Part shown: piece after piece, positions 28,508-48,475 of the stretch
Numbering within the stretch: the stretch's first letter is position 1
Layout: each line of letters opens with the position of its first letter
Source of the DNA: an uncultured Armatimonadetes bacterium
GTDB lineage: Bacteria; Armatimonadota; UBA5829
Assembly (NCBI GenBank): GCA_963711155.1
Contig: CAVQDB010000004.1
Coordinates: 261,262 to 325,261 of the forward strand
Length of the DNA stretch: 64,000 nucleotides
Reading direction: 5' to 3'
Translations under genes and position numbers: made by a program
The notes under the pieces: model-generated
Told to the model about the DNA's origin: nothing
The model's input: only the letters and a program-made list of their open reading frames with translations
The model's database searches: none

Positions 28508-31500
28508 ATGCAATGGAGAGGCCACGTAGACGATCAGCGAGTCTGGACCATGATAGTAGTGGTGCTAGTGCTTTCCACCTCGGCGATGTTCACAGCAAGT
28601 GAGTCGCCCATACGAGCTGAATGCGATAGCTGGGCGGATTGGCGGCCGGGGCCGGGAATTGAGCTGAGTCCTTACATCGAGTATGCTCCACCTGGCCAGG
28701 ACCCGACCGGGGACGAGTTTACCGTCTGTGAGGGACCAATCTACAGCCTGAGTGCCAATCCGATCGAGGACATAGATGAGTACCAGACATGCTGGGACGA
28801 GTGCACAATAGGTGGTGTAACCTACCCGGCTGGCTGCGACGGCGAGTGGCATGAGGCAACAAGCCCATACGGATCGAGCGAATCCTACTCAGGTGATGGG
28901 ATCGTCTACGGTTTCGTGTTCAGTCCGGAAGTCGCGGGCCCTGGCGACCACGTGATAGAGTGCACCGTGACCGACAACGGTCCGGCCCCGGACCCCGCCG
29001 CCAACTGCACGTGGACGTTTCATGTCATCCCCTCGGGTCCCCCACAGTGTGAAGCTGGGAACGCGCCGCCAACTCTGGTGATGGTAACTAAGGCCTGTGA
29101 CGGCTACTACATAGCAGACTGGCCCTGCCCGCCTTGCGACTCGAATACGGGCAAGTCGTGCTCTTCCGGAAGCTGTGACGAGACGCCTGAGCCCACCGAC
29201 TATGATCGGGCAGTCGCTGGATGGCAAGGCTCCTGGAGTGCCGGTTCCCATGCCGATACAGCCTGGAAAGCCGGCTGCCCCTGCCCCACCCAGGCAGTGT
29301 CTGCCCTGGTTCCCCGAGTGCCACCCATACGGGCCCTGGGCTATCTCGATCACCATCGCCCCAAACATAGCTGGGCCGCTCAACCCGAATGACACGGTCG
29401 ACTACTGGTCGAACGGCAAGCACATCGAGGGAACGTGGGAGGAGGACGGCACTCTCACTGTCAACGTCACCTATGTAACCGGGGTGATGCTTGTCTTCGG
29501 TGGCCCCGCCCTCTGGGACGGCTGCAACTACCAGGTCCTATCAACGAGCTGGACTACAACCACCGGTGAAACCTACACAGTCACTCGCGGAGACGGTGGG
29601 GTCGTCGAAGAGGTACGTGCCGCCAGGTCCGGCGACGTCTGGGCCGCTTCACAGACTGATGAGGCCCACCCGAAGCGGACTACCGAGATCAAGGATCCGG
29701 ACGAAACGGTAGTCAGAATGGTCTTTGACGACGAGGGAGACTCCGAGCACAACACAGGCAGGCTGACCCAGGTGCTGCATCTGAGCGACGACCCGCAGGA
29801 CCCATCCACGCTGTCGGAGATCCACTACGGCTACGACTACTACGATCCCGGCAACCCACCGACCTACGTAAGCACCGACCCGGAGAGGCTTCGCAGCGTG
29901 ACCTCCGACACGAAAACGACCGTCTATGACTACTATGACGATCTGGAAGACAATGCCAGCCGGATCATCGTGCGCGAGGTCTACCGTGCCCAGGACTGGC
30001 CGGCCACCGCGGATGACGTGTACTCCGAGACCTGGTACGACTACGCCGCGCCCGTCGATGATCTCGCCACTACCACCATCACCAGGAAGGCGCTGGGGCA
30101 GACCGGCGTGGTGGATGATGAGACGATCTACGAGTACTACTGCGGCACCGATGACGCCAAGGACTACAAGATCAAGTCGATCACCAGAAACGGCGAGACC
30201 ACGTCGTACACGTACACCGCTGGCGGCCAGGTCGAGACCGTCACCGATCCCAAGGAGCGGGTGGTCACGTATGAGTACGCCGACAACTCCGACCAGTGGG
30301 AGCCCGTAGTCACAAGCGCGACGCTCGAGGACGCCAGCGAGAACACGTTGGCGGAGTTGTCATACACCTACTACCAGGACGATGGCTACAATCGCTGGCT
30401 CAAGACCCAGAAGGATGTCCGCGGCAATTACACCTACTATGAGCGCGCGGACACCAACCACATGGACAGGGTCACCGGCATCAAGGTGGCCACCGGGCCC
30501 GACGAGCCCGCGAACTGGGCGGCGGAGCCATACGTGGAGTCGTACACTTGCTACGGAGACAGCGATACCCACGGCAGGGCCGGCCAGCTCGCAACCGTGA
30601 CCGTTCCGAATGTGGATGGAGACGATCATGCCTGCGTGACCACTCTGTACTACGACGAGACGGTCGACTCGCAGGCGATGTTCTTCGATACGCCCACCGA
30701 GGTCTACCGAACGAACACATCCGGCAGCTCGGTGCGGGTCGCGACCTACACGCACGACGTGATGGGCAACGTTCTCAGCGCCACGGACGCCGACGACAAG
30801 ACCACGTGGTTCACCTACGATCTGCTGGGCAATCCGATCAGGACGATCTACGCCAAGGATGGTGAGACCCCGACCATCTACACGGAGAACCACTATATGT
30901 CCTGCTGCGGCCTGCTCGATTCGGTCCGCAACGAAAACGGCGACCGGCTGTACTTCGACTACGACAAGATGAAGCGGCCGAACCGGGTGTGGACCGACAT
31001 CCAGGCCCGCGAGTGGGGGCAGGTGGACATCGACGAGGGCACCGGCGAGGTCACGAATGGCTTGGCCTACGACGGAACCCCAGCGGTCACATGCGAATAC
31101 GACAAGCTCGGCCGCATCTACTCCGCGACGTTCTACCCCGACGCGAGCTCCGGCGGCATCACGACAAGCTGCACGTACGATGCCAACAGCCGGGTGACGG
31201 ACATCGACTACCCCGGCGACATCGCCGATACGGACTACGACTACGACGAGGTCGGCAACCTGCTCTACGCCAAGGGCGGGCCGGAGAACACCTACTTCAC
31301 GGCCAAGTACCACCTCCTCGACCGAGTCACCGACATCTATCTCACCGGCCTGGGCACGCTTCCCAACCCTCTGCCGTCGGGGACGGGCGATATTCGGATC
31401 GCGTATGACGGGTCGAGCTACCTCGTCACGGACGTGTATCGGGACAGCAAGCACGTAACCTACTCCTACGACACGTTTGGGCGGCTCAAGACCTACAAGC

Positions 31501-33305
31501 CGACGACCGGCCCGATCTCCGGGGTGAGCCTGTGGTACGACTACAACTCGCTGGGGCAGAAGAAAGAGGTCACGATCAAGGACGGCGTCGGCGCGACCGT
31601 GCACTCCACGACCTACGACTACTACCGCAACGGCTGGCTGAAGTCCATCAACTACGACGGCAGCAAGGTCGCCGAGTATACTCACGACGCAGTCGGGCTT
31701 CTTGCGCAGATCGACTTCTACCACGACGACCCCGTGTTAGGCAACATTGCTACCGGCGCGTATGATGTCTATTCCTACGACACAACCGACCCGCGCAACT
31801 TCCTGAAGACCATCACGATGCACTACAAGGACGCTGGCGGGAATCCCGCGTCGTCGGTCGTCGACTACACCGACGGTAACGGCAACCCGAACGTGGACAA
31901 GGCCGGCAACCAGCTCTCGATGGGCAACCTCGCCGGCCAGTGGACCTACACCTACGACCACGCCGGCAGGATTTCGTCGATCGTCCCCCCGAACCCCGTC
32001 CCCGAGCAGGGCCTCGGCGGCGACTACGGCTACAACTGGCTCGGCCAGCTAACCAACCCCCCCGCCGACCCCAACCACCTCACCTACAACTCCGCCGGCC
32101 TCCTCTCCACCTGGCCGGGGATGTACAGCTACGCGTATAAGGCGAGTGGCTGGCCCGAGCAGGTGAAGAATCCCGCCAGCACTACAACCATTGCCTCACT
32201 CACCTATGACTCGGCTGGGTACCTGACCGGGACCACTTTCGAGGGTGTGACGGCCCAGTACTCGTGGGATGCGGATGGGACGCCTTTGGGCTACACGGAG
32301 ACTGCCGGCGGGTCGGAAACCGGATCGGGGCTCACCAATCGCACGGCTTCCGTACCGTGCGAACAGGTTGAGGACATATCGGGCGATGTAGTATACTACA
32401 TTTGCGACCCGCAGGGCGCAACCATCGCCAGTGTTTCGTCGGCAGGGGTGGTTCACTACCACGCAGATGGAGCTGGACGCATCGTAATGTCTACCAAGAG
32501 CGATGGCAAGGTCCAAGGCACGTACATACACGGCCCCGATGGCAGGATTGCTTCTACGAACGATCCGCAGGGAGCGAAGCGCCTCCGCGGCAAAACGGGC
32601 TCGCACCCGAAGCGGCCCCCTGGGGCTGGCCCAGGGTCGCCAGACATGTCTGCCGTACTCAGGGCATTCAATCAGCTCAAGCCCGGCTCGAAGACGTACT
32701 GGAACTATAACGGCGATGATGGTTGGACACGAGATATTGCTGCCGCCTCGGTCCTGCGTGGTTTCCGTAGCCGGGTATACAAATTGGCAGGAGCCGGTTA
32801 CAAGGGACGGGTGAAGCCGGGAGAGGATATCGGTCCCTGTGCTCACTTCTGCGCCATGTTGGAGGGTAACCCAGAGGATGTCATCGACCTTGGCAGCTTC
32901 CACGTTGATGCGCGCATTGACGGCGACAACATATACTTTACAGCGAAGAACACCTGGAGTAACAACTCCAAGTACGGACTGAACGATTTTCGCAGACTTT
33001 TCCCCCAGCTGCCGACCCTTCCGGACGATCATTGGGTGTACATGAAGTGGGAATGGGTCGAGCACCCTTCGAGAAACTGGGGGGGGCGGTACGGTTATTC
33101 GCCACAGGGACCCGCCACCTGGTGGCCATGGTGGCCGGGGAATCTTATCAGGGGCATAGTGGAAGACCCGATTCTCGGTCCGATTGTCGGGCCTCCCGAC
33201 TTCGGTAAGCCGTGGCCACCCAAGGATGCGGTGTGGCCCGGCACGCCGTATCCCGGCATGCCTATTCCGTGGCCCGTGGATCCACATCATCCGACCTTTC
33301 CATAG
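28508..33305 (+). CDS. Full-length secreted RHS/YD-repeat protein with a Cys-rich N-terminus and a variable Pro/Trp-rich C-terminal domain (one frameshift near 29.2-29.3 kb)
   Basis: Signal-like N-terminus in ORF 28508..29392; many YD repeats in ORF 29175..33305. Confidence 0.85.
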
Positions 33306-33325
33306 ATGCCGACGGAGGTTTGGAA

Positions 33326-33865
33326 ATGTTCGCACATCCTCGTTCCCGGCGCCGTGCGCTCTTGGCGATACTGATAGCCGGCCTGGCCCTGGCGATGGGC
33401 TTGCTCCTAGCCAGCTTCCTTGGTCTACTCGGGCTTATGCCGGTGAGCGAGCGCTCACTGGTTGGCACCTGGGTCGTGCACTATCGGACACAGGAGGGCT
33501 GGCCCGCGGGTACCGATACACTAATCCTCAAGCCGGACAACACGTTCGTACAGATCTGCTTGCCCGAAAAAGGAAAGAAGATCGAGGCGGCGATTGGCCA
33601 TGGCGCCGCGATTGGCCGGGGTCCACTCAAGAAATACGATAGGGTGCGGATTGTTGGCACGTGGCACATAGTCCAGAACCGCCTCGAGACCGAGGGAATG
33701 CTTGGTCCCCCAGAGGATGGTATAGTTGCTGGCAACCCATACGTCAGGACGACCGGCCTCTGCGCCGCGGGATTGCCGGTCTATTGGTACATAAGAGGTT
33801 CTGAGATCTACGCTCGCGGCGACGAGGACACTGACAATGCCGACTACTTTCGGAGGGTAAGGTGA
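33326..33865 (+). CDS. Membrane-anchored hypothetical protein, putative cognate immunity protein
   Basis: GGAGG RBS, N-terminal TM helix, directly after the RHS stop. Confidence 0.55.
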   Translation: MFAHPRSRRRALLAILIAGLALAMGLLLASFLGLLGLMPVSERSLVGTWVVHYRTQEGWPAGTDTLILKPDNTFVQICLPEKGKKIEAAIGHGAAIGRGPLKKYDRVRIVGTWHIVQNRLETEGMLGPPEDGIVAGNPYVRTTGLCAAGLPVYWYIRGSEIYARGDEDTDNADYFRRVR

Positions 33866-33992
33866 ATGGTTCGCACACGGCCGAACCGCCACCAGCAGTA
33901 GCGCTTCTGGTGCTTTGGGACAGGCGCGGCAGGTGAGCGCATGCCTCGGAAGGTTTCTTGACCCGAAGCAAGAGCGACGGATCCAGATTCGT

Positions 33993-34061
33993 GCCGTACT
34001 GGTGGTCCAGCACATCCGCGTGCTGCACCAGTATGGCTGATGCCGACCGAACATTGACGAC
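33993..34061 (+). promoter_or_regulatory. Hairpin plus boxA-like motif, type A copy 1
   Basis: CAGCAC-ATCCGC-GTGCTG stem-loop, then GAACATTGACGAC. Confidence 0.5.
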
Positions 34062-34074
34062 ATGAGGCGAGCGA

Positions 34075-35792
34075 TCTTGTCACCGACGTGTACCGCGACA
34101 GCAAGCACGTAACGTACTCCTACGACACGTTCGGGCGGCTCAAGACCTACAAGCCGACGACCGGGCCGATTGTCGGGGTCAGTCTGGTACGACTACAACT
34201 CGCTGGGTCAGAAGAAAGAGGTCACGATCAAGGACGGCGTCGGCGCGACCGTGCACCCCACGACCTACGACTACTACCGCAACGGTTGGTTGAAGTCAAT
34301 CAACTACGATGGCAACAAGGTCGCCGAGTATACTCACGACGCAGTCGGGCTTCTTGCGCAGATCGACTTCTACCACGACGACCCCGTGTTAGGCAACATT
34401 GCCACAGGCGCGTATGACGTCTACTCCTACGACACGACCGACCCGAGCAACTTCCTGAAGACCATCACGATGCACTACAAGGACGCCGTCGGGAATCCCG
34501 CGTCCTCGGTCGTTGACTACACGGACGCCTACGGCAATCCCAACGTGGACAAGGCCGGCAACCAGTTGTCGATGGGCAACCTCGCCGGCCAGTGGACCTA
34601 CACCTACGACCACGCCGGCAGGATCGCCTCGATCGTCCCCCCGAACCCCGTCCCCGAGCAGGGCCTGGGCGGCGACTACGGTTACAACTGGCTCGGCCAA
34701 CTGACCAACCCTCCCGCCGACCCCAACCACCTCACCTACAACTCCGCCGGCCTGCTCTCCACCTGGCCGGGGATGTACAGCTACACGTACAAGGCGAACG
34801 GCTGGCCTTTCGAGGTCAGGAATCCGTCAGGCACAATGGTCATTGCGGCACTTACGTACGATCCGGCCGCCTATCCGAGCGAGTGCGGTCTCTCCGGCGT
34901 TACGGCAGAGTTCTCGTGGGACGCGGACGGAGCCTTTGTTGGGTACACCGAGACTGGCGGAGGGTCAGAGTGCGAGACAATGCTTAGCGACCCCACGGCG
35001 CCCGATTCCTGTGTCCTGGTCGACAACACATCGGGCAATCCACTATACTATATCAGTGATCCGGAAGGGCAGGTGGTTGCCAGCGTTTCATCTGCAGGCC
35101 AGGCCGACTACCATTCTGATGCCGATGGGCAGTTTCAGGCATCAACCGCAAATGATGGCAGAGCGCAATACAGCTATACTTACGGGCCTGACGGGGAACT
35201 CGTTCCCACAACCGACCCGCAGGGCGGCAACACCGTCTCGGGTGCCATAGGTGTACCCGGAGAACGGGCAACTTCAGTCCCTCGCTTCGTGTTGCTCGAT
35301 TGGGTGGACGATGCCTCCGATTTCTTCGCGGGCTGGGGCGATACGTTAACGTTTGGCGCGACCGGCAGGATACGTATGTGGCTTGGCGTAAATGATGTTG
35401 TTGATGAGGGTTCGGGCTGGTACCTGGGAGGGCAGATCACGGGGATGGCCCACAGCATCGCGTTCGGAGCAGCGGCGGGAGCGCGGGCTGCAGGCACAAG
35501 AGGCGCGGGAAGAGAGTTCTCTCATTTCTGGCCAAAGCGATGGGGTGGTCCACGAAACATATTCAACGGCAATTACGTTGCTCCGGCGCGGCATTATCTG
35601 CACGACGTATTCCGATATCCCCGGGGATGGAGAGATCTGGGAACTCGATTACCTCCTGTCATTGCGCAGCTAGACAGGATTCCCAACTTGTACAAAGGAA
35701 TTGCTGCGGGATCAGCATACGGCGTGTTGGGAAAAGCCGCGAGTGATCGTGAGAACGGCAAGACCATAGACGGTCCGTGCCCGTGTCCTTAG
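34075..35792 (+). CDS. Orphan RHS cassette 1: partial RHS core plus an HNH-like C-terminal toxin
   Basis: Near-identical to the main RHS from LVTDVYRDSKH to TWPGMYSY; tip EFSHFWP...NGNYV...HYLHD; ends GPCPCP. Confidence 0.8.
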
Positions 35793-35879
35793 GGATAGTT
35801 CTTTGTCGGAGTACGCGCAGTTGCCCTGGTGCGGTGAGCACAGAACGAGCCGTGCATATAGCGGAGAGAGGCCGTACAA

Positions 35880-36380
35880 GTGTATAGATTCGGCTTTACA
35901 AGCACTATTGAGGACTTGCTGGATGCTGAGGAGGCCGACGCGAGAGCAAGGACGGGCATTCGCTGCTGGCTTCGCTGGGTGATTGCGGCTGTCGGTGGCA
36001 CGGCGGTTATCCTAGCGCTTGCCACATTCGCGCTAGAGGGATGTGGCTGGTGGCCGGCAGTCTGGCTAGTGCTCGGCGGCTATGCCGCGTACTGCTTTGC
36101 CGTCGCGGGCTACGTCAGACGGTGCCGGATCCGGCGCAAAACCCCATCCTCCCTGGACGTGGTGGCGGAGTTTCGAGACGATGGCCTGGAAATCGAACTG
36201 ACTGGACACGGCATGTATAGACGGGGATGGCATTAACTGCTTAGCTTCACTGATGCCGACAAAGGACTGCTCTTGTACTTTGATGATGGCACTGTGAACT
36301 GGCTTCCCGATCGTGTTTTTGTTGACGGTACGCAGAAGAGATCATTTGTCGAGTTCCTGCGAGACCGCGAGGCTGCGTAA
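35880..36380 (+). CDS. Two-TM YcxB-like protein, putative immunity protein (frameshifted)
   Basis: Two hydrophobic helices, then AEFRDDGLEI...W; follows cassette 1. Confidence 0.45.
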
Positions 36381-36440
36381 GTCTATGTCTGAGCGCAGTA
36401 GTCGGCGTATCTACGGGCGAAGCCAAACGGCCGCTCGGCA

Positions 36441-36457
36441 GGCTGTTCCTTGACAAC
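36441..36457 (+). promoter_or_regulatory. boxA-like motif, type B copy 1
   Basis: GGCTGTTCCTTGACAAC upstream of cassette 2. Confidence 0.45.
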
Positions 36458-36545
36458 ATAAGAGCGCAAGACCCCAAGGCGGAGTCGAAGCGCTGGCGAT
36501 CTCGCGCCGGTATCGCGACCTGCGGTGTGTCTGTTCCACAGCTTG

Positions 36546-38791
36546 TCTGCGGTCTGCTCGATTCTGTTCGCAACGAGAACGGCGACCGGCTGTACTTCGA
36601 CTACGACCTTATGAAGCGACCGAACCGCGTGTGGACGGACATCCAGGCCCGCGAGTGGGGCGGGGTGTCGATAGACGGCAACGATGAGGTCACAAACGGC
36701 CTGAGCTACACCGGAACCCCGGCGGTGACCTGCCAGTACGACAAGCTCGGACGCATCTACTCGGCGACGTTCTATCAGGATGCCACGCATTCCTTAGACT
36801 ATGCCTGCACTTACGATGCCAACAGCCGGGTGACGGCAATCGACTACCCTGGCGACATGGCGGACACGGAGTATGGCTACGACGAGGAGAACGGGTAACC
36901 TGACCTACATCAAGGGCGGTCCGGAGAACACCTACTTCACGGCCAAGTACGACCTCCTCGACCGCGTCACCGATGCTGTACCTCACCGGCTTGGGCACTC
37001 TTCCCAATCCCCTGCCGTCGGGGACGGGCGACATCCACATCGCGTACGACGGCAACAGCTATCTCGTCACCGACGTGTATCGCCACAGCAAACACGTCAC
37101 TTACTCCTACGACACGTTTGGGCGGCTCAAGACCTACAAGCCGACGACCGGCCCGATCTCCGGGGTGAGCCTGCGGTACGACTACGACTCGCTGGGGCAG
37201 AAGAAAGAGGTCACGATCAAGGACGGCGTCGGCGCGACCGTGCACTCCACGACCTACGACTACTACCGCAACGGCTGGCTGAAGTCGATCAACTACGACG
37301 GCAGCAAGGTCGCGCAGTATTCGCACAAGGCAGTCGGGCTTCTCTCGCAGATAGACTTCTACAACGGCGCGACTGCCACCGGCGCGTATGACGTGTATTC
37401 CTACGACACAACCGACCCGCGCGACTTCCTCAAGACCATCACGATGCACTACAAGGACGCCGCTGGGCAATCCGACGTCCTCGGTCATCGACTACACGGA
37501 CGGCGCGGGCAACCCTAACGTGGACAAGGCCGGCAACCAGCTATCGATGGGCAACCTGGCCGGCCAATGGACCTACACCTACGACCACGCCGGCAGGGTC
37601 GCCTCGATCGTCCCCCCCAACCCCGTCCCCGAGCAGGGCCTTGGCGGCGACTACGGTTACGATTGGCTCGGCCAACTCACCAACCCCCCCGCCGACCCCA
37701 ACCACCTCACCTACAACTCCGCCGGGCAGCTCTCGGCGTGGCCGGGGATGTACAGCTACACATACAAATCGAACGGTATGCCCTATCAGGTGAAAAACCC
37801 TTCCGGCACGATGGTCATCGCGTCGTGCGCCTACAGTGCAGCCGGCTTCCCACGCGAGTTCACTACCGGCGACATAACCACGCAATGTGAATGGGATGCC
37901 GAGGGAACCCTGCTTGGATACGCCCAGACAGCCGGTGGAACGGAGAGCCAGTCCGAGCTGATCGATCCGACCATGCCCAACGGACCGGTCCTAATGGACG
38001 ATGTGTCGGGCAGTACGGTATCCTATGTGTGCGACCCTCAGGGGTACGTGGTTGCCAGTGCATCGGATAACGAACGGGTGGACTATCACCGTGACGCTTC
38101 TGGGGAATTCGGAGTGTCTACTGCAAGTAGCGGTGCAATCGTTCCCACATATGCGTATGGGCCCGACGGTGAAGTAGTCTCCACTTCCGATCCGTTGGGA
38201 GACAGGATCGCCGGCTGCAACGAGGGTTTGTTGTTCAGTAGTCTCGCGCGAACCAGTCCGTGGTCCATTGGGGATGTCTGGGACGGTATCGTACGTGTCA
38301 TCGGGGGAAGGCGTGGTGACTTCGTCGACACCTACCTGAACGTAGGTTCCGACTTCTGGGCCGGGATGGGCGACACCATCTCTGGAGGATTGACAAACGA
38401 TTTCCGCCGATTGATCGGGGTGGACGACGCTGTGCACTACGGTTCGACGGCGCACACGGTAGGCAGAGTTGGAGGCTACGCTTGGCATGCGGCTTCGCTG
38501 TTCGATGCTGGCGCAATACTGCTGGGGCGAGCAAGAATCCCCGTCACGACGTGGGCGCCACGTGGAGTGCAATCCACGCTGGTCTCAGGACGCTGGGTGA
38601 CGCTAGGCACAAAGAACCCGGTCTCGTATTTCTCGACGCTTACCTGGCTGCGGGGGTATCCTTACGCAAACGCAATCACGGAGTATGTGCTGATCAGGGA
38701 ACTGGGGCTCGTCCCAGGATGGTCGGGGATTGTCCACGCCCTGCCTCCGTTCATGCACTTCATCTATCGTGGGCCATGCCCGTGCCCGTAG
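36546..38791 (+). CDS. Orphan RHS cassette 2 with an unknown C-terminal toxin (frameshifted)
   Basis: Homology to the main RHS starts at CGLLDSVRNENGDRL; ORFs 36527, 36973 and 37388 join; ends GPCPCP. Confidence 0.8.
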
Positions 38792-38800
38792 GAGGATCCT

Positions 38801-39644
38801 GTGTGGCTAATCATCGTTGGTTTCGTATGTAGCGCGGTTCTCACAGTCCTGAACGCGCTATCTGTGAGGCGGGTCGCAGCCAGAAGTGATGTTTCATTTC
38901 CGCTCGCGCTACCGATTGTGCCCTGGGTCATTAACGTGTACTGCGTATTCCACATTCCAGTATCCTGGACGCTCAAGGTTGCCGCAATCTGCCTTGCCAC
39001 GCTCATTGAGGTTGGGGTGGACGTGGTCTATCCCCGCGTGCTCGTTCAACGCGGCAGCGGGGCGTTACACCGTGGGGCACGCAGAGGTGACCTAGAAACC
39101 TGCAACGCACTGTTGGGCGCGGGAGCGGATGTGAACTCCCGCGACAGTCAGGGGTGGTCGCCCGTGGAGTTGGCTGCCATCGAGGGACACAAGGATGTGG
39201 TTGCCGCTCTGGCTCGCGCTGGTGCCGATCTAGGGCCCTATCACACCGCGCCGTGGGGAAGGAGCCGAAACGACGCGCTTGGAATGGCTGCCAGCGAGGG
39301 AAGATACGGTGTCGTGAAGATGCTTGTGGAAGAGGGATGGTCTATCAACGACGCGGACGAGTATGGATACTTCGCTCTCCGCGCGGCGATTCGCGAAAGA
39401 CGGCCTGAAATGGTTGATTATCTTCTCAGGGCATGGAGCTTCTCCGCGTGGCCGCGGGCATTGCGAGGATACCCCTCTGCACTACGCAATCGCGAACGGT
39501 GACCTGTCGCTGGTCAGGAGATTGGTCGAGCAAGGTGCGGACGTAAACCAGAAGAACGGGCGGGGGCAAACGCCTCTCGCGCTGGCCTTGGAAACACGCA
39601 TTGAGAGCGTCGCTAGTGAACTACGTTCACTGGGTGCCAGCTAG
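38801..39644 (+). CDS. TM plus ankyrin-repeat protein, putative immunity protein (frameshift near 39430)
   Basis: ALHRGARRGD..., GADVNSRDSQGWSP, TPLHYAIANGD...GADVNQKNGRGQTPL. Confidence 0.85.
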
Positions 39645-39674
39645 CAGGCTGGGTTGAGAGACACAGCAGGCGCC

Positions 39675-39773
39675 ATTGTCCGGCACATCCGTGTGCTGAA
39701 CGATCGCATTGCTATGCCCATCGGACATTGACAACACGAGACAAGCACGTGGTCTACTCCTACGACACGTTCG
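39675..39773 (+). promoter_or_regulatory. Hairpin plus boxA-like motif (type A copy 2) followed by a ~30-bp RHS stub
   Basis: CGGCAC-ATCCGT-GTGCTG, GGACATTGACAAC, then caagcacgtggtctactcctacgacacgttcg. Confidence 0.5.
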
Positions 39774-40090
39774 ATGCTTCGGGAGGTCTTTTTCACCGAA
39801 GCAGGAGCGGCGGACTCACGCGGGCGCGGCTGCACAGTCGCGCCCGCATCCCGACCAACGGCAACGGCACTGCCCGTCCGCCCAGCAGTTCCGCCGCCGG
39901 CCGTATCTATCCGCCAACTCCACTGCCCCTCCGGCCCGACAATCCGCCGCGCGCCTCCCTTTCCTCAGCTCTCAACCCCCAAAACCCCAACCGCACAGCC
40001 CGTGAACAACAATTAACCGAAATACCACAGCCCGTTCCTTGATATTCCTGCGCATGTGTCGTCTAATAGTAGTGGACACACACAATAGGA

Positions 40091-40164
40091 GCAATCATGC
40101 GCCACCAACCCTCGAACCCTGGACTCTGGACTTTCGACTTCGGACTGCGGGCTCTCGACTCGCT
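40091..40164 (+). repeat. Degenerate heptamer tandem repeat
   Basis: ctggact-ctggact-ttcgact-tcggact...ctcgact units. Confidence 0.55.
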
Positions 40165-40266
40165 CTATAATCAAAACCCGCAAAACAGTTTCCCGCCACG
40201 CTCGAATTGAGCACGAGACTGTTTTGCACAAAAACGTTTTGCTGAGCGTGCAATTCCGTGCACGGC

Positions 40267-40283
40267 GGCTGTTCTTTGACAAG
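40267..40283 (+). promoter_or_regulatory. boxA-like motif, type B copy 2
   Basis: GGCTGTTCTTTGACAAG about 25 bp before the cassette 3 homology starts. Confidence 0.5.
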
Positions 40284-40306
40284 TAAAGACAGGCGTTACC
40301 CGACCC

Positions 40307-42180
40307 CGACACGTTCGGCCGCCTCAAGACCTACAAGCCGACCACCGGCCCGATCTCCGGGGTCAGTCTGCGGTACGACTACAACTCGCTGGGCCGGAAG
40401 AAGGAGGTCAGGATCAAGGACGGCGTCGGCGCGACCGTGCACTCCACGACCTACGACTACTACCGCAACGGCTGGCTGAAGGACATCAACTACGACGGGA
40501 GCAGGGTCGCCGAGTATACTCACGACGCAGTCGGGCTTCTTGCGCAGATCGACTTCTACCACGACGACCCCGTGTTAGGCAACATCGCTACCGGCGCGTA
40601 TGATGTCTACTCCTACGACACCAGCGACCCGCGCGACTTCCTCAAGACGATCACGATGCACTACAAGGACGCCGTCGGGAATCCCGCGTCGTCGGTCGTC
40701 GACTACACCGACGGTGAGGGCCACCCCAACGTGGACAAGGCCGGGAACCAGTTGTCGATGGGCAATCTCGCCGGTCAATGGACCTACACCTACGACCACG
40801 CCGGCAGGATCGCCTCAATCGTTCCCCCCAACCCCGTCCCCGAGCAGGGCCTGGGCGGCGACTACCGCTACAACTGGCTCGGCCAACTGACCAACCCTCC
40901 CGCCGACCCCAACCACCTCACCTACAACTCCGCCGGCCTCCTCTCCACCTGGCCAGGGATGTACAGCTACACGCGTAAGCCTAACGGCGCACTTGACCAG
41001 GTGAAGGACACTTCTGGACTGCAGACCATTGCTTCACTTAGCTATGACTCAGCTGGCTTTCTCGACCAGGTTGTGTGCGGCTGCTGCGCTACCACGCGAT
41101 GCAGCTGGGATGCCGATGGAGGGTTCCTCGGATACGCCGAGACTGGTGGCGGGTCGGATACTCAGTCAGTGCTTGCCGATCCTACCACTGGATCGGCAGA
41201 GATGGACGACGTATCAGGCAGCGCGGTTCCCTATGTTTGCGATCCACAAGGGGACGTGATTGCCAGTGCCGCATCGGCTGGCGGCGCAGCGCATTACCAC
41301 TCCGACGCAGACGGACGGATTCAGCTGTCGACCGGGGCCGACGGGCGCATGGTTTCGACTTACGAACGCGGGCCGAACGGCGGCGCGATCTTCACGTCAG
41401 ACCCGCTAGGTTCGAGGATTGCGAGCAAGGACGGCACGAGCACATGGCCGCCGCGGTGGATGGATCCAACCGGTAGCTTGAGCGGTCTCTGGGACGGCTA
41501 CTGGGGTGACGTTGGTGCGGTGTTCGCCGGCGAAGCCAGCGTGCTGAACCCCGTCAACTGGTACAACTCCGGCAAGAGCCTCTTTGAAGGCTATATCACC
41601 GCGCAAGTAGAAGGTTACCGGTACAAGGGTCAGGTACTACTCGGGGAATTTCGCGGTCACTGCCTGGGAATTGGACAGGGTGTTTCCTGCTCTGGCTCGG
41701 TCGTATACGGACCTATTCCAGCTCGACGACCCGTACCGGTTCGGCTCGTCAGTGATGACTTGGGAGCTAACCCTCGCTCCTTTGGCAGACAGACTGCCGA
41801 GCTCAGGATCAGCTCTCTGCCCCTGCGCCACAGGCATTGCTGAGGTCCCAGCCCTCGAGGAGATTGTCGGGGTTCGCAAGGTGCCGAATCCCCATGGTAG
41901 CCCGGGCGGCCCCTTGCATAGTGGAACGATCACTGAGCTCAGCGATCTGCTGGAGGGGCTGGGACGTGACGTTACTAGAGAGAAGAAATTCGACACTCCA
42001 GGTGGGCTCAAGCCCTACCGCAGACCGGATCTCCTTTGGGAAGAACCGGGCCTGGGCCAGGTCGCGATACAGGTGTACAAACCGACCAAGGGTGGGAGGA
42101 TACCCCTCCGCGAACTCAAAGCCATGCAGGATCTGAAGCTTGGCGGGTGTAGTCGCGTCATATTCGTGCCGTACGAGTAG
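40307..42180 (+). CDS. Orphan RHS cassette 3 with a restriction-endonuclease-fold (PD-(D/E)xK-like) toxin (frameshifted)
   Basis: RHS core copy; tip in ORF 41671..42180: GGPLH...REKKFDTPGG.KPYRRPDL...AIQV.K...PLRE..A..D. Confidence 0.75.
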
Positions 42181-42186
42181 GGGGAG

Positions 42187-42681
42187 ATGAGAGTGATGGG
42201 AAAACAGACGGGGTTCTTCATGTCTGAATCTGACGAGGCGGAGTTCCTGGGATTGGTCGGGGATCACGGCGACGTGATCCTGGGTCTTGACGCGCGCGAG
42301 TTGACGGTCGAGGAAGCCCTGCACTACGCACGGAGGAAGGTCTTCATTGCGTTGCCCCAGTCGGAGCCGACTCTGTCTGCGTTCGGCCTCATCTCGTCGG
42401 CTGCGGAGGTAGTCGAGTTCTGGCGGTGCCTGAGGCGAGGTGATGGGCACATAGAGGATGGAAGGATCTGGGCTGAGTTCCGGGACTACGACAGCAGTGG
42501 CAGACTGGTGCCTCGGGCCAAGCAGTTCCAGGACATGTACAGCTTCTACGCCAAGTGGATCAAGAAGCACTACCGAATCAGCAGTAATAAGCGCTACTAC
42601 ATCGGCCCGGAGGCCTACCGGAAGTACAAGGAAGACGGATGGACTATGCGGAGCGGCGTTGTCACGGTTGAGTTTGAGTGA
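42187..42681 (+). CDS. Putative immunity protein
   Basis: 164-aa ORF 6 bp after the toxin stop; GKQTGFFM.ESDE.EF, GRIW, WIKKHY, YYIGPEAY. Confidence 0.7.
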   Translation: MRVMGKQTGFFMSESDEAEFLGLVGDHGDVILGLDARELTVEEALHYARRKVFIALPQSEPTLSAFGLISSAAEVVEFWRCLRRGDGHIEDGRIWAEFRDYDSSGRLVPRAKQFQDMYSFYAKWIKKHYRISSNKRYYIGPEAYRKYKEDGWTMRSGVVTVEFE

Positions 42682-42687
42682 GCTGTT

Positions 42688-42764
42688 CGGCTGTGGGAGT
42701 ATCGGTCCAGCACATCCGTGTGCTGGATCAGACCCGTAGCCGATGCCGACCGAACATTGACAAC
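42688..42764 (+). promoter_or_regulatory. Hairpin plus boxA-like motif, type A copy 3
   Basis: GGTCCAGCAC-ATCCGT-GTGCTGGATC stem-loop, then GAACATTGACAAC. Confidence 0.5.
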
Positions 42765-42771
42765 ATGGCGC

Positions 42772-44481
42772 GAGCTATCTCGTCACGGACGTGTATCGGG
42801 ACAGCAAGCACGTAACGTATTCCTACGACACGTTCGGGCGGCTCAAGACCTACAAGCCGACCACCGGCCCGATTGTCGGGGTCAGTCTGTGGTATGACTA
42901 CAACTTGCTGGGGCAGAAGAAAGAGGTCACGATCAAGGACGGCGTCGGCGCGACCGTTCACTCCACGACCTACGACTACTACCGCAACGGGTGGCTGAAG
43001 TCGATAAACTACGACGGCAGCAAGGTCGCCGAGTATTCGCACAACGCGCTCGGCCTTCTCTCGCAGATCGCCTTCTACAACGGCTCGACGGGCCACCGGC
43101 GCGTATGATGTCTATTCCTACGACTCAACCGACCCGCGCAACTTCCTCAAGACCATCACGATGCACTACAAGGACGCTGGCGGGAATCCCGCGTCGTCGG
43201 TCGTCGACTACACCGACGGTAACGGCAACCCGAACGTGGACAAGGCCGGCAACCAGCTATCGATGGGCAACCTCGCCGGCCAGTGGACCTACACCTACGA
43301 CCACGCCGGCAGGATCGCGTCGATCGTCCCCCCCAACCCCGTCCCCGAGCAGGGCCTGGGCGGCGACTACGGCTACAACTGGCTCGGCCAGCTAACCAAC
43401 CCTCCCGCCGACCCCAACCACCTCACCTACAACTCCGCCGGCCTCCTCGCCACCTGGCCGGGGATGTATAGCTACACCTACAAGGCGAACGGCGCGCCCC
43501 ATCAGATCAAGAATCCTTCCGGATCCCTGACGCTTGCGTCCTTCACCTATGATTCGGCCGAACTGCCAAGCGAACTGCAGGTGTCGGGCGTAAGCGCAGA
43601 ACTCCTGTGGGACGCAGACGACACACTTCTGGGGTACAGCGAGACTGCCGGAGGCTCGGAGAGCCAGTCCGTGCTCACAGACCCCACTGCTTCCGTATCG
43701 CCGGCTCTGATGGCGGACGTGTCGGGCACTGTGGTATACTACGTTTGCGATCCGGAAGGGTGCGCGGTTGCGAGCGTCTCGGGCGGCAGTAGGGCAGATT
43801 GCCATTCCGACGGCTATGGCCGCATCCAGCTAGCGACCGGAGACAGTGGCGCAGTCGAGCACACCTACGTCTACGGTCCCGACGATGAGCTGATCTCGAC
43901 GGATGATCCGCTGGGACAGAGTGTCGTTCCCGGCATCGCGCTTCTGTCCATCGGGAAGCCGCCGTGGTACGTTGAGTTCGTTCCGTTCGTTGGTCCAGCC
44001 TGGTCGGCGATTGATGACTTCCAGAACGGGAACTACCTGGGGGGCATAGTCAACACAGCCTTTGCTGTCAGCGACGTTGTGGGTCTCGGAGCCGCGGGCA
44101 AAGCGATCAAGATCGCGAAGAAGATCTCAGGTCCTGCTGTCACGAGCTGGGCGTGGAAGAATGCGAGTCGTCGGTTGCACAAGGCTGGCTTCGCCGGGCT
44201 CAGGGAACCAATCCATCACTACATCATACGGCAAGGCGGCGACACCGCCGAGCGACTGGCCGAGAAGTTCGGGAAGGAGAGAGTTGAGAGGTGGGCTCGG
44301 CCACCCACTGGGCCTGGTGAACGTGAATGATCAGTTTGTTCATAATGCAATAGAGGGCAAAGGTAGGGCCAGCTGGGGGCTTGCGAGGCGTCTCTGGAAA
44401 GGGACGCCGGCTTGGCCCAAGCTGCTGTTGCCCGGCAGGATGTCGCCACTTCTTAACTCGCTTCCCTGCGACTGCGAATGA
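42772..44481 (+). CDS. Orphan RHS cassette 4 with an HNH-like toxin (frameshifted)
   Basis: RHS core copy; tip REPIHHYII...LVNVNDQFVHNAI; ends LPCDCE. Confidence 0.75.
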
Positions 44482-44924
44482 TCACTACGAGAAATCTGTC
44501 ATACCCGGTCATTGTGGTTGATGAGGATGGCTATTGCATGGTTGCTGTAGACGAGGACACCCTCACTACGCTGAACAACGTTACTCTCAAGCGTGGTGGC
44601 TTTGATGATTGCACGTTCGTCGATAGCAACGGTCAGGCTGCGAAGGTGAAAGAGACAAGACGGGTAGCGCCAAAGGGGCGATTCCTCGGCTTCACAATAT
44701 GGTTGGAGCGCATGTTCCGGGTCGAGTACACGCTTAGTGAGCCGTTTGAGATGCCGCTGGAGAAGCTCCGGGCGATCGTCCTTCGCGACGTGAGAAGAGC
44801 CGGAGGATCCCTGCACCCGGACTACTATCGGGAGGAACTGAGTAGGTTCAAGAACGCCCAGACCATTCGGGAGATCATTGAGCTCAGATTGCCAAACGCC
44901 GACCTGAAGGAGTTCTGGAAGTGA
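44478..44924 (+). CDS. Putative immunity protein
   Basis: 148-aa ORF with an ATGA overlap on the toxin stop. Confidence 0.65.
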   Translation: MITTRNLSYPVIVVDEDGYCMVAVDEDTLTTLNNVTLKRGGFDDCTFVDSNGQAAKVKETRRVAPKGRFLGFTIWLERMFRVEYTLSEPFEMPLEKLRAIVLRDVRRAGGSLHPDYYREELSRFKNAQTIREIIELRLPNADLKEFWK

Positions 44925-45081
44925 GGGGAGACGCGGCTGCGCATCATGCTCGAGCGATCTCGTTGCAGCATCTGGCAGCGCGGACTGGAGGGAGGCCCGC
45001 TATGGCGTCTGTGACTGTCCATGAACTAGCTTTCCCAGTGATTGAGTTCTATGTCTCCCTATAGAAGTGGCGTCAATAGCC

Positions 45082-45262
45082 AACTGCGTTTTTTGTTAGT
45101 TGCAGTTTGAGCGATTTCCCTATTGGCGCTTTGTGTGCGCAGATTATCGTCGCGTATCAGGAGCCTCTCAATTCGGGGCTGGACCATCAAGTGGTCAGAC
45201 ACATAGTCGGAGAGTGCTCCATCATATCGTTGTTCTGCGCATTATCTGCAGTGTTACTGGTA
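45082..45262 (-). ncRNA. Predicted bridge RNA (target- and donor-binding loops), copy 1
   Basis: Two stem / internal-loop / hairpin modules whose loop strands match the flanks and the element ends. Confidence 0.75.
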
Positions 45263-46297
45263 TCATGCGGCGGCCTTCCTCGGGGCGGCCTTCGAATTAT
45301 CCCATGCTTTGCCGTGCGCGAGCATCTGATGAATCACCCTCACGGCTTTGCGCGCCACGGCCATCTTCGCCGCGTTGGTATGGTTCCTGAACTGCACCCG
45401 CCAGTAGGTTGTGCGCAGGGCGTTGTCCTTCCTGCTGTGACTGGTCCTCTGCGCCAGCAGCCCGATTGCGTAACGCAACCACCGGTTGCCCCAGTTGCCC
45501 AGGCTGCCGTAGTAGCAGCTCTGACCGCTCTGAAACACTCTGGGCGCAAGCCCGACGTAGGATATCAACTGACTCGAACGCTTGAAACGTGCAATGTCGC
45601 CAATCTCCGCCTTGACCAGCAGGGCCGTCAAAGGTCCCACGCCGGGGATGGTCTGCAGTAACGCGCATTCCTTGTCTTGTGCTGCTTCCTCCTCTATGGC
45701 GGCCTGAAGTTCGTTCTCTATCTCTTGCGCCTTCTGCAGCAGTTCACGCCAAAGCTGCATCACCCTGGCCGAACGCGCCGGGAGTTGCGCCTGATCCAAG
45801 TCTAACCCGCCGCCTTTTGTCATCAAGCGCCTATGGCCGACATACCCCCAGCACTTAAGAAGACTGCCCATCTCGTTAGTCAGCCGAGTCGCCCACCTGC
45901 TGATTCGGACTTTGCCGCGAACCAGCACTCGCAGATCCTGGGTCTTCTCATCAGGAATGTAGAGGCATTCTATCTCGCCTCGATACAGCATCTGCGCCAT
46001 CCGCAGCGCGTCGTTGCGGTCCGTCTTTGCCCGGCGATCTTTTCGTCGATCCCACAGTTTCGTTGGATCGGCCACAGTAAGCGTCTCGAACAACGGTCTC
46101 AAGTCACGGTAGATTGCCCATGAGTTGATGCCTGACTCCATAACCCCATGCAACGGGCCCTGCAGTCCTCCGAACAACTCCCTCAAGCTGTCCGGGTCAT
46201 TCGGAACCCGATCGCGTTCGACGATCTCACCTGTGAGCGGGTCGAATCCCACAATCGTGATCCACTTGCAATGTACGTCCAATGCGATGTATAACAT
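45263..46297 (-). CDS. IS110 family recombinase (DEDD RuvC-like plus Tnp domain)
   Basis: IALDVH, VMES, KTDRNDA (DEDD); LLQTIPGVG, EIGDIARF, FQSG (catalytic Ser), AVARK. Confidence 0.96.
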   Translation of the reverse strand: MLYIALDVHCKWITIVGFDPLTGEIVERDRVPNDPDSLRELFGGLQGPLHGVMESGINSWAIYRDLRPLFETLTVADPTKLWDRRKDRRAKTDRNDALRMAQMLYRGEIECLYIPDEKTQDLRVLVRGKVRISRWATRLTNEMGSLLKCWGYVGHRRLMTKGGGLDLDQAQLPARSARVMQLWRELLQKAQEIENELQAAIEEEAAQDKECALLQTIPGVGPLTALLVKAEIGDIARFKRSSQLISYVGLAPRVFQSGQSCYYGSLGNWGNRWLRYAIGLLAQRTSHSRKDNALRTTYWRVQFRNHTNAAKMAVARKAVRVIHQMLAHGKAWDNSKAAPRKAAA

Positions 46298-46430
46298 TGT
46301 TGGCTTGACCTCCTATCGCTGTGTTTGTCAAACTGCGACTATGATCGCCTACTAAACACAGCTGAGGCAAGCCACTTCTTCATGATAATTCGGGGCTGCA
46401 CCGAGTCGTGGCCTTGACGATCAAGCGTAA

Positions 46431-46476
46431 GGACAGATGCGTCGCGGGTTCGTCTTTAGCCGCGACGCAGCTGTCC
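46431..46476. repeat. REP-like palindrome upstream of the RAYT fragment (second copy at 48111..48156)
   Basis: ggacagatgcgtcgcgg-N12-ccgcgacgcagctgtcc. Confidence 0.55.
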
Positions 46477-46538
46477 GTCAGTGAGAACGAGGCTGGCTGC
46501 CAGAGGAGAAGCCGTTGCGGGGGGCGAATATAGCGGGC

Positions 46539-46735
46539 ATGAAGTGGCGCAATATCGACGTTGGCAACGCGGCCCACTACATCACGGGCACGATCACCGA
46601 GTGGCTGCCGCTGCTGACCATCACGGAGATCAGGCAGCGGGTGTGCGATGACATCGAGTTCGCCCTCGATCTGTTCAACGGGGCGCTGCTCGCGTTCGTA
46701 ATAATGCCGACACACGTGCATCTGCTCTCTATGTG
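46539..46735 (+). pseudogene. N-terminal fragment of an HUH Y1 transposase (RAYT / IS200-like), cut by IS110 copy 2
   Basis: HYITGTITEWLPL...AFVIMPTHVHLL with the HUH motif. Confidence 0.8.
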
Positions 46736-46761
46736 TCCCTATACAAGCGGCGTCAATAGCC

Positions 46762-46942
46762 AGCTGCGTTTTTTGTTAGTTGCAGTTTGAGCGATTTCCC
46801 TATTGGCGCTTTGTGTGCGCAGATTATCGTCGCGTATCAGGAGCCTCTCAATTCGGGGCTGGACCATCAAGTGGTCAGACACATAGTCGGAGAGTGCTCC
46901 ATCATATCGTTGTTCTGCGCATTATCTGCAGTGTTACTGGTA
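46762..46942 (-). ncRNA. Predicted bridge RNA, copy 2
   Basis: Same loops as copy 1. Confidence 0.75.
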
Positions 46943-47977
46943 TCATGCGGCGGCCTTCCTCGGGGCGGCCTTCGAATTATCCCATGCTTTGCCGTGCGCG
47001 AGCATCTGATGAATCACCCTCACGGCTTTGCGCGCCACGGCCATCTTCGCCGCGTTGGTATGGTTCCTGAACTGCACCCGCCAGTAGGTTGTGCGCAGGG
47101 CGTTGTCCTTCCTGCTGTGACTGGTCCTCTGCGCCAGCAGCCCGATTGCGTAACGCAACCACCGGTTGCCCCAGTTGCCCAGGCTGCCGTAGTAGCAGCT
47201 CTGACCGCTCTGAAACACTCTGGGCGCAAGCCCGACGTAGGATATCAACTGACTCGAACGCTTGAAACGTGCAATGTCGCCAATCTCCGCCTTGACCAGC
47301 AGGGCCGTCAAAGGTCCCACGCCGGGGATGGTCTGCAGTAACGCGCATTCCTTGTCTTGTGCTGCTTCCTCCTCTATGGCGGCCTGAAGTTCGTTCTCTA
47401 TCTCTTGCGCCTTCTGCAGCAGTTCACGCCAAAGCTGCATCACCCTGGCCGAACGCGCCGGGAGTTGCGCCTGATCCAAGTCTAACCCGCCGCCTTTTGT
47501 CATCAAGCGCCTATGGCCGACATACCCCCAGCACTTAAGAAGACTGCCCATCTCGTTAGTCAGCCGAGTCGCCCACCTGCTGATTCGGACTTTGCCGCGA
47601 ACCAGCACTCGCAGATCCTGGGTCTTCTCATCAGGAATGTAGAGGCATTCTATCTCGCCTCGATACAGCATCTGCGCCATCCGCAGCGCGTCGTTGCGGT
47701 CCGTCTTTGCCCGGCGATCTTTTCGTCGATCCCACAGTTTCGTTGGATCGGCCACAGTAAGCGTCTCGAACAACGGTCTCAAGTCACGGTAGATTGCCCA
47801 TGAGTTGATGCCTGACTCCATAACCCCATGCAACGGGCCCTGCAGTCCTCCGAACAACTCCCTCAAGCTGTCCGGGTCATTCGGAACCCGATCGCGTTCG
47901 ACGATCTCACCTGTGAGCGGGTCGAATCCCACAATCGTGATCCACTTGCAATGTACGTCCAATGCGATGTATAACAT
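46943..47977 (-). CDS. IS110 family recombinase
   Basis: Protein identical to 45263..46297. Confidence 0.96.
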   Translation of the reverse strand: MLYIALDVHCKWITIVGFDPLTGEIVERDRVPNDPDSLRELFGGLQGPLHGVMESGINSWAIYRDLRPLFETLTVADPTKLWDRRKDRRAKTDRNDALRMAQMLYRGEIECLYIPDEKTQDLRVLVRGKVRISRWATRLTNEMGSLLKCWGYVGHRRLMTKGGGLDLDQAQLPARSARVMQLWRELLQKAQEIENELQAAIEEEAAQDKECALLQTIPGVGPLTALLVKAEIGDIARFKRSSQLISYVGLAPRVFQSGQSCYYGSLGNWGNRWLRYAIGLLAQRTSHSRKDNALRTTYWRVQFRNHTNAAKMAVARKAVRVIHQMLAHGKAWDNSKAAPRKAAA

Positions 47978-48244
47978 TGTTGGCTTGACCTCCTATCGCT
48001 GTGTTTGTCAAACTGCGACTATGATCGCCTACTAGACACAGCTGAGGCAAGCCACTTCTTCATGATAATTCGGGGCTGCACCCAGTCGTCGCCTTGACGA
48101 TCAAGCGTAAGGACAGATGCGTCGCGGGCTCGTCTTTCGCCCCGACGCAGCTGTCCGTCAGTGAGCACGAGGCTGGCTGCCAGAGGAGAAGCCGTTGCGC
48201 GGCGCGAATATAGCGGCATGAAGTGGCGCAATATGGATGTGGGC

Positions 48245-48475
48245 TACGACGCCAACAACCGTCTGACCACGGCCGCGCCTCCGAACCCGGTTCCGGGGCA
48301 GCCCGCGGGTGGACCGTATGATTACGACTGGGTGGGCAATCGCATCCATCCGCCCGCCGACCCGAACTCGATGACCTACAACGCCGCCGATCAGCTCCTG
48401 ACCTGGCCGGGCATGCATACCTACACCTACTACCCCGACGGTAGCCTGCACGAGGAGAAGAACGCTGTGGGCTGA
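48245..48475 (+). pseudogene. Divergent RHS fragment
   Basis: YDANNRLTT..PPNPVPGQ..GG.YDYDWVGN...PPADPN..TYNAADQL.TWPGM, paralogous to the array core. Confidence 0.7.

Follow-up and report, generated by a model that had tools for sequence, protein, structure and literature searches.

Orphan rhs-CT/rhsI arrays of Enterobacteria begin with a full-length gene; behind it lie fragments of the conserved RHS core, all in one orientation, that lack the N-terminal delivery part and carry a varied C-terminal part and a small downstream gene. In Salmonella, the main rhs toxins as well as the orphan toxin and immunity genes are reported to be expressed via promoters within the rhs frame (PMC7043789). Here, we describe an array of this kind in an uncultured Armatimonadetes bacterium, i.e. 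in a 64,000-nt stretch of DNA (positions 261,262 to 325,261 of the forward strand of contig CAVQDB010000004.1, assembly GCA_963711155.1; "the window"), and the short sequence motifs at the junctions between its cassettes.

The initial annotation of the window had listed five co-oriented motifs resembling boxA, and had proposed that a boxA precedes every orphan cassette and carries RNA polymerase through to the downstream immunity genes. A report on boxA (PMC13753749) states that boxA alone suffices to prompt an antitermination complex and that suhB and CRISPR operons are preceded by it as well. It gives the consensus sequences of E. coli and of Bacillus, the latter (AUGAUCUUUGAAA) being bound by NusB.

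The locus is an ordinary array, in which a single full-length rhs gene heads four orphan rhs-CT/immunity cassettes. It resembles the enterobacterial arrays in the layout of genes and fragments described above, and it differs from them in that five cassettes in two arrays of this genome share a repetitive extragenic palindromic (REP)-type hairpin and an ATG-led, TGA-interrupted frame, and in that no conserved internal promoter was found. The five motifs turned out to be two independent features. Our tentative explanation, which we regard as plausible, is that they are two unrelated junction sequences of an ordinary array, one consisting of a hairpin and an old, stop-interrupted gene start, and the other being a separate short block.

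Two different junction sequences

All five motifs were recovered on the plus strand, and their coordinates were confirmed, i.e. GAACATTGACGAC (34049-34061), TGTTCCTTGACAAC (36444-36457), GGACATTGACAAC (39723-39735), TGTTCTTTGACAAG (40270-40283), and GAACATTGACAAC (42752-42764). They had been treated as one class, which did not hold, because they belong to two different junction sequences, class A (34049, 39723, and 42752) and class B (36444 and 40270). It is the larger blocks around the motifs that go beyond chance, and not the 8-mer that they share. TTGACRAS is not enriched in the window taken as a whole: its 12 occurrences compare with an expectation of 7.16, and 12 or more were seen in 6 of 100 shuffles.

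The cassettes were mapped with tblastn, using the main RHS protein (a 1376-aa frame, 29175-33305) as the query. All five motifs indeed lie upstream of RHS homology, at distances of ~6 nt (34049), 91 nt (36444), 25 nt (40270), and 3 nt (42752), while the motif at 39723 is ~1-2 nt ahead of a 37-nt RHS stub. That each motif also directly follows an immunity gene is not true for 40270. This motif lies at the right end of an insertion within an orphan. The window contains four orphan cassettes, not five.

The hairpins that had been described for three of the motifs are real. Within the window, the apex GCACATCCGYGTGC is present at exactly three places (34010, 39683, and 42710), and all three stems fold, with minimum free energies of -31.1, -23.4, and -25.0 kcal/mol (z values of -2.95, -1.22, and -1.98, respectively). 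In the genome (5.64 Mb on five contigs, marker completeness 60.6%), the apex was found once more, on contig C3, again ahead of RHS.

The class A leader

Class A is a leader of ~65 nt that is composed of a REP-type stem-loop, a variable spacer, and an ATG plus seven codons in the RHS frame. Five copies exist in the genome (BLAST and a hidden Markov model (HMM) of the leader), three in the window and two on contig C3 (C3:1102992 and C3:1100952), with BLAST E values from 5e-39 to 2e-4 and HMM E values of 3e-14 or lower. All five adjoin RHS residue 746/747 (tblastn). In the five-copy alignment, 17 of 21 columns of the hairpin and 20 of the 32 columns from the ATG into RHS are invariant, compared with none of the 14 spacer columns. 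The conserved block exceeds a boxA or a -35 box in length by far, and it continues into the coding sequence. The spacer changes fast and has a length of ~14-20 nt.

The three stem-loops of the window are located at 33993-34037 (core CAGCAC-ATCCGC-GTGCTG at 34008-34025), 39665-39713 (core CGGCAC-ATCCGT-GTGCTG at 39681-39698), and 42704-42729 (GGTCCAGCAC-ATCCGT-GTGCTGGATC), all on the plus strand and identified by sequence and folding. Each is followed by a mini-frame that contains the motif, also on the plus strand. For the first and the third copy, it reads ATG-CCG-ACC-GAA-CAT-TGA in the RHS frame (34040-34057 with the motif 34049-34061, and 42743-42760 with the motif 42752-42764). For the second, it reads ATG-CCC-ATC-GGA-CAT-TGA (motif 39723-39735), and the RHS stub with a 34-nt deletion follows (39714-39773 together).

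The motif GAACATTGACAAC corresponds to codons 4-8 of the leader frame, Glu-His-stop-Gln-His, and the stop is the TGA within TTGACA. Translated in the RHS frame, the class A copies read ...GPAHPCAG..P*(P/L)MPTEH*QHGAS-YLVTD. The ATG and the TGA are in frame with RHS in four intact copies; the sequence of the copy at 39723, ATG CCC ATC GGA CAT TGA, was read by eye. The copy at C3:1100952 has TTGGCA, and thus TGG, instead, and one extra codon; it reads MTPTEHWQHGASSLVTD... and is open from the ATG into RHS. When its 51-aa frame was used as the query, the other class A copies matched from residue 2-3 onwards, with one internal TGA each, whereas the main RHS gene, orphan 2, and the relatives matched only from residue 8-12. 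Therefore, seven to eight codons are specific for the leader. The order of a stop codon, a hairpin, a spacer, and an ATG is the layout of a gene start.

The class A stem-loop itself is, judged by its sequence, a diverged member of a dispersed family of REP-type hairpins. The pattern GTCCAGCA-N(4-12)-TGCTGGAC has 22 occurrences in the genome, of which 15 belong to a single tandem array with a 52-nt period and 7 lie outside it, and 27 when purines and pyrimidines (R/Y) are relaxed. The tandem array (C3:493520-494360) comprises 16 units of 52 nt, each with the REP-type hairpin GGTCCAGCAA(G/A)TCCGTTGCTGGACC. After the five class A copies, the next-best matches of the leader HMM are hairpins of this family, and a by-eye comparison with the copy at C4:90988 gave 21 of 24 identical positions, with an A-T pair replaced by a C-G pair at the top of the stem. 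An exact-arm search had presented the hairpin as a stand-alone element; the HMM and the relaxed-arm searches overturned this result. The hairpin is also not an rrn-like boxB.

REP-type repeats are usually found at a short distance behind the end of a gene. The class A hairpins conform to this in three copies, with distances of 23-37 nt to the preceding stop, while in the first copy ~140 nt separate it from the stop, and a different dispersed hairpin lies in between. They also resemble REP/REPIN repeats in that arms and loop are common to hairpins that are single, paired, or part of the 16-copy tandem array. In contrast to REP/REPIN repeats, the class A variant with C-G for A-T was found only in RHS arrays, where it moves together with the RHS fragment and not alone. 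The other dispersed hairpin (ATGCTTCGGGAGG...CCCGAAGCAGGAGC) occurs in the window at 33934-33979 and 39775-39815, and inverted copies of it flank a tetratricopeptide repeat (TPR)-like gene at C3:443400-444780.

The class A hairpins lack the T-tract of an intrinsic terminator, and none of the 6 terminator-like sites between 28000 and 45500 coincides with them. BLAST did not find the leader in any of 40 relatives. A hairpin-plus-motif pattern had 40 matches in a collection of species-representative genomes, close to a hand-estimated chance level, and none of the 40 is beside RHS; a stricter version had a single match in a metagenome collection, at chance level and with neither stem nor RHS.

Two other origins of the leader were considered and found no support. 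The first was decay of RHS coding sequence. Local alignment with the main RHS DNA was no better than with shuffled sequences, and the observed scores of 36444, 40270, and the class A leaders were reached by 373, 207, 437, and 287 of 500 shuffles. Because shuffles score alike, the 13/15 match of CGGCTGTTCTTTGAC to the codons for RHS R-L-Y-F-D is not evidence of descent. The second was the junction between the stop of the main gene and the start of its immunity gene (33299-33345), which was an unsupported lead. Class A shares three short, non-colinear matches with this junction (11/12, 10/10, and 11/12). For the five copies, 34-443 of 2000 shuffles match as well; the best copy is at 34 of 2000, and the 39723 copy shares only 8 nt (443 of 2000). 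The class A HMM does not find the junction at E values up to 200.

An old gene start as a tentative explanation

A truncated rhs-CT gene with a start of its own exists in this genome, in the second array on contig C3. This array has no full-length rhs gene nearby, and the stand-alone gene at its head encodes 568 aa from RHS residue ~794 onwards (C3:1103680-1105600, minus strand); it has a canonical promoter (TTGTCA-17-TAATAA) and its own ATG and is followed by an Imm11 gene.

The copies, the frames, the hairpin family, the insertion, and the comparison with boxA are direct observations, and the following scenario would connect them. The class A leader may be the 5′ end of an rhs-CT gene that was truncated at its N-terminal side and formerly had its own start. 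In four of the five copies, the leader frame is closed by a nonsense codon, and this TGA could have a silencing role. Recombination between RHS cores would have spread the leader from cassette to cassette, and the leader would have been copied along with the RHS fragment from residue 746. The likeness of class A to a -35 box or a boxA would then be incidental. UGA-C in the leader may also be a leaky stop, which would allow a trickle of truncated toxin.

Several results weigh against an old gene start. No Shine-Dalgarno-like run precedes the ATG in any class A copy, while other genes have one. The in-frame arrangement of ATG and TGA represents a single ancestral arrangement, with a coincidence probability of about 1 in 9. 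In a hand count over the four full copies, ~14 changes were at third, 6 at first, and 8 at second codon positions, a skew that is not significant. The conservation downstream of the TGA is not explained by coding selection and needs a non-coding constraint or frequent gene conversion. Either TGG or TGA could be ancestral. Furthermore, CATTGACAAC is a typical extended -35 sequence in this genome; of its 19 copies that are not part of RHS arrays, about 10 are followed by TAnnnT or CAnnnT at a distance of 17-18 nt (by eye). The same 9-mer CATTGACAA is the core of the 23S-leader boxA of the family. Finally, the assembly is rich in indels, which weakens statements about the frame of any single copy; the class A frame rests on the agreement of five copies.

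The class B block and the comparison with boxA

A block of 24 nt, GC(T/A)CGGC(A)GGCTGTTC(C/T)TTGACAA, is common to both class B sites, a similarity that none of 1000 shuffles reached. The copies are found at 36433-36457 (GCTCGGCAGGCTGTTCCTTGACAA..., with the boxA look-alike at 36445-36457) and at 40260-40283 (look-alike at 40271-40283), both on the plus strand. Within the 5.64 Mb, TGTTCYTTGACAAS occurs only twice, namely here. Because the two sites adjoin different RHS residues, 578 and 766, respectively, they do not represent a single junction that was copied.

The second copy forms the right end of a 534-nt insertion (39774-40307, plus strand) within the orphan that is headed by the 39723 leader. 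The insertion is flanked by a 10-bp direct repeat, GACACGTTCG (39764-39773 and 40308-40317), and comprises at least two dispersed repeat modules, one of which has 29 BLAST matches genome-wide. Both modules lie side by side also at C5:1347590, C3:138728, and C2:123274. This copy of class B may have come in with, or next to, the insertion of dispersed repeats, also measured as 524 bp, that split a class-A-led orphan. The insertion includes a dispersed element of ~95 nt (40166-40262; 29 BLAST matches) with a long nested hairpin, AAACAGTTTC...GAAACTGTTT around CACGCTC...GAGCGTG, which matches no Rfam family. Runs such as GGACTTCGGACCTCGGAC are frequently located ahead of this element, and the rrn spacer contains similar ones.

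For the comparison with rrn operons, a boxA profile was built from 12 leaders (11 genomes of the class) and five spacers. The lineage leader profile is G-N-T-C-Y-T-T-G-A-N-A-A-Y, and the spacers of the family have GYTCATTGWCAAG. In the genome under study, boxA-like sites were found in the 16S leader (GTTCCTTGAAAAC), where a hairpin and two canonical promoters precede the site, in the 16S-23S spacer (GTTCATTGTCAAG), and in a second 23S operon on contig C3 (GTTCCTTGATAGC and GTTCATTGTCAG). The arrangement of the rRNA genes is unusual: the spacer of the 16S-23S operon (C2:449460-453983) is ~500 nt long and has no tRNA gene, while the separate operon (C3:293984-297900) has two tRNA-like genes (Ile and Ala, by eye) before the second 23S gene.

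Agreement with the host's rrn boxA had been named as a test of the initial proposal, and the outcome differs between the two classes. Class B fits all invariant positions of the profile. The site at 36444 agrees in 12 of 13 positions with the host 16S leader boxA, and that at 40270 in 12 of 13 with the 23S-leader consensus of the family and likewise in 12 of 13 with the host's own spacer copy. By its sequence, the host boxA is thus not unlike the class B motifs, and class B is a separate short block that resembles rrn boxA. Class A, in contrast, has an A where a T is present in 12 of 12 leaders and four of five spacers. As class A breaks this invariant T, reads TTGGCA in one of its five genomic copies, and lies inside an ATG...TGA frame, a boxA ahead of every cassette is not supported.

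These results bear on the explanation that class B, and perhaps a weakened class A, load NusB/NusE (S10), so that polymerase resists Rho up to the downstream immunity genes. The fit of class B to the consensus of the host and the lineage is accompanied by further points in favor of this explanation, i.e. class B precedes long stretches that may be untranslated, a 24-nt block is common to junctions at different RHS residues, no -10 box follows any motif, and the genome has genes for NusB (a 156-aa open frame, E 4e-35) and Rho (Rho_RNA_bind, 69 bits). That boxA alone suffices for a complex and occurs before suhB and CRISPR operons, as stated in PMC13753749, is also in its favor. Two profile sites in ~1.2 kb of junction sequence versus ~0.003 expected, a rough estimate, is far above background. 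Moreover, 36444 was the best non-rrn match of an rrn-leader HMM that had been built without this genome.

However, this match has an E value of 1.7 and is not significant, and 40270 was not found by a 23S-leader HMM at E values up to 100 and is mostly paired in a predicted local hairpin. The profile is not very specific, with 36 sites genome-wide and, therefore, ~32 of background, and 7 and 5 sites are within one mismatch of the two class B 13-mers. In contrast to rrn leaders, no architecture of promoter, hairpin, boxA, and boxC was detected by the HMMs at class B beyond the core. Also in contrast to rrn boxA, related arrays do not retain the sites, and class A departs from the profile at an invariant position.

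Enrichment of the motifs upstream of orphan cassettes in relatives had been suggested as a further test and was not observed. In five related genomes (G003, G005, G009, G035, and G047; 13 loci), none of 40 orphan starts had a boxA-profile site or TTGACRAS within 300 nt. For the orphan starts of the present genome, the fractions are 2/8 for the boxA profile and 5/8 for TTGACRAS. The RHS arrays of the relatives have their own conserved junction leaders and hairpins, and their orphan starts recur near residues 735-748, 817, and 861-874. In a scan of 401 genomes from the phylum, matches to the class B 16-mer (one mismatch allowed) were sporadic; none of 30 loci was linked to RHS or followed by a -10 box, none of 20 scanned loci was linked to rRNA, and the matches look like coding sequence. 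A test of boxA-like sites for open frames was uninformative in this G+C-rich and indel-rich assembly. Lastly, the Salmonella orphans are reported to use promoters inside the rhs frame (PMC7043789), so that read-through is not the sole route to expression. In view of these results, an antitermination role of the motifs is doubtful.

Promoters and DNA-level sites

A second alternative is that each cassette is driven by a sigma-70 promoter whose -35 hexamer is the TTGACA box, or that this was formerly the case. All five motifs contain TTGACA or TTGACG. CATTGACAAC is a common extended -35 sequence in the genome, the rrn promoters are TTGACC-17-TAGAAT and TTGACA-18-TAATAT, and the C3 array is headed by TTGTCA-17-TAATAA. 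In addition, a paralogue of the inserted repeat (C2:122989) has a canonical promoter, TTGACA-17-TATGCT, at 29 nt from the end of the repeat, versus 28 nt for the 40270 motif. The lack of a good -10 box had already been noted, and it was borne out by our analysis: none of the five motifs has TAnnnT 16-18 nt downstream, and none of the 8 promoter-like sites between 28000 and 45500 is at a motif. In class A, the would-be -10 position is RHS coding sequence (TCGTCA/TTGTCA), and a dead -35 box would not be expected to stay conserved beside a changing spacer. We therefore consider promoter parts improbable. A candidate promoter within the RHS core, TTGAGG/TCGACA-18-TATACT, was rejected, as it encodes a YY.CDP motif and its -35 box is not kept in orphans 2-4.

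It is very improbable that the palindrome and the conserved block are a DNA-level site at which a recombinase or regulator binds to move or control the cassettes, for although the 10-6-10 inverted repeat is near-perfect, has a conserved loop, folds about equally on both strands (-31.1/-33.3, -25.0/-23.7, and -23.4/-27.0 kcal/mol for plus/minus), marks the left edge of the sequence common to the cassettes, and has IS110-family, rve, and serine-recombinase-like genes downstream of the array, it belongs to a dispersed hairpin family that is not linked to RHS, no recombinase gene was found beside the C3 array (14 frames scanned), and 1.2 kb of RHS core homology is alone enough for cassette exchange.

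Cassette map and surroundings

All features of the array are encoded on the plus strand. The full-length RHS gene (29175-33305) is a 1376-aa open frame with PF05593 (RHS_repeat) and its own C-terminal toxin part, and it is followed by putative immunity gene 0 (33326-33865), which is membrane-anchored, matches no Pfam family, and has GGAGG ahead of its ATG. The orphan RHS parts are 64-92% identical to the main protein, end around residues 1135-1149, and diverge beyond (tblastn). The four orphans are co-oriented, each has a distinct C-terminal part and a small downstream frame, and they contain no N-terminal delivery part (tblastn, domain scan). One of the small frames following the cassettes encodes an ankyrin-repeat protein, and the others have no Pfam family; in the C3 array, Imm11 was found.

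Orphan 1 (34067-35792) covers RHS residues 747-1147, with a frame break at ~34186, and putative immunity gene 1 (35880-36380) has an in-frame TAA at 36234-36236, beyond which the frame goes on to 36380. Orphan 2 (36548-38791) covers residues 578-1135 with several frame breaks and is followed by the ankyrin-repeat immunity gene 2 (38801-39644; Pfam), with a frame break at ~39460-39500. Orphan 3 begins at residue 746 before the insertion and resumes behind it (40308-42180) with residues 766-1143; putative immunity gene 3 (42187-42681) matches no Pfam family. The same holds for putative immunity gene 4 (44478-44924), which follows orphan 4 (42767-44330; residues 746-1149, frame break at ~43085). 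Behind it, at 44942-44963, by-eye comparison with the five-copy alignment revealed a degenerate remnant (CATCATGCTCGAGCGATCTCGT), in which the 3′ part of the class A leader and the first RHS bases can be recognized; it has neither hairpin nor TTGACA.

Because rho is split over at least three reading frames in the assembly (C5:524800-526300) and marker completeness is 60.6%, we regard the assembly as indel-rich, and frame breaks, be they in the orphans or in the two affected immunity genes, can therefore not be read as decay.

Two near-identical tandem elements of the IS110 family (45100-48035) directly follow the array, with 344-aa transposase frames at 45263-46297 and 46943-47977 on the minus strand. 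An RHS scrap lies beyond both elements (48245-48463), and the array was therefore probably cut by them. An AbiEi/AbiEii toxin-antitoxin pair is encoded on the minus strand at 23616-24792, and its AbiEii frame is seemingly truncated. No Rfam family was detected within the window at gathering thresholds.

Implications

The locus holds three lessons for the annotation of such arrays. Motif counts should be checked for copies of one ancestral junction before they are read as repeated selection, a word resembling a -35 box or a boxA can stem from a few codons, and hairpin repeats, remains of gene starts, and repeats that have inserted all contribute to the junctions of rhs arrays.

A literature search found no published description that joins boxA or antitermination with Rhs or orphan cassettes. 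It is quite unlikely that class B, possibly together with a weakened class A, is a working boxA that protects polymerase through 1.2-1.7 kb of untranslated RHS sequence up to the next toxin/immunity pair; if it were true, Nus-factor antitermination would operate inside a polymorphic-toxin array. If class B does load Nus factors, boxA antitermination would extend from rRNA, suhB, and CRISPR arrays to toxin/immunity arrays, and this would explain how the silent-looking orphan immunity genes stay expressed.

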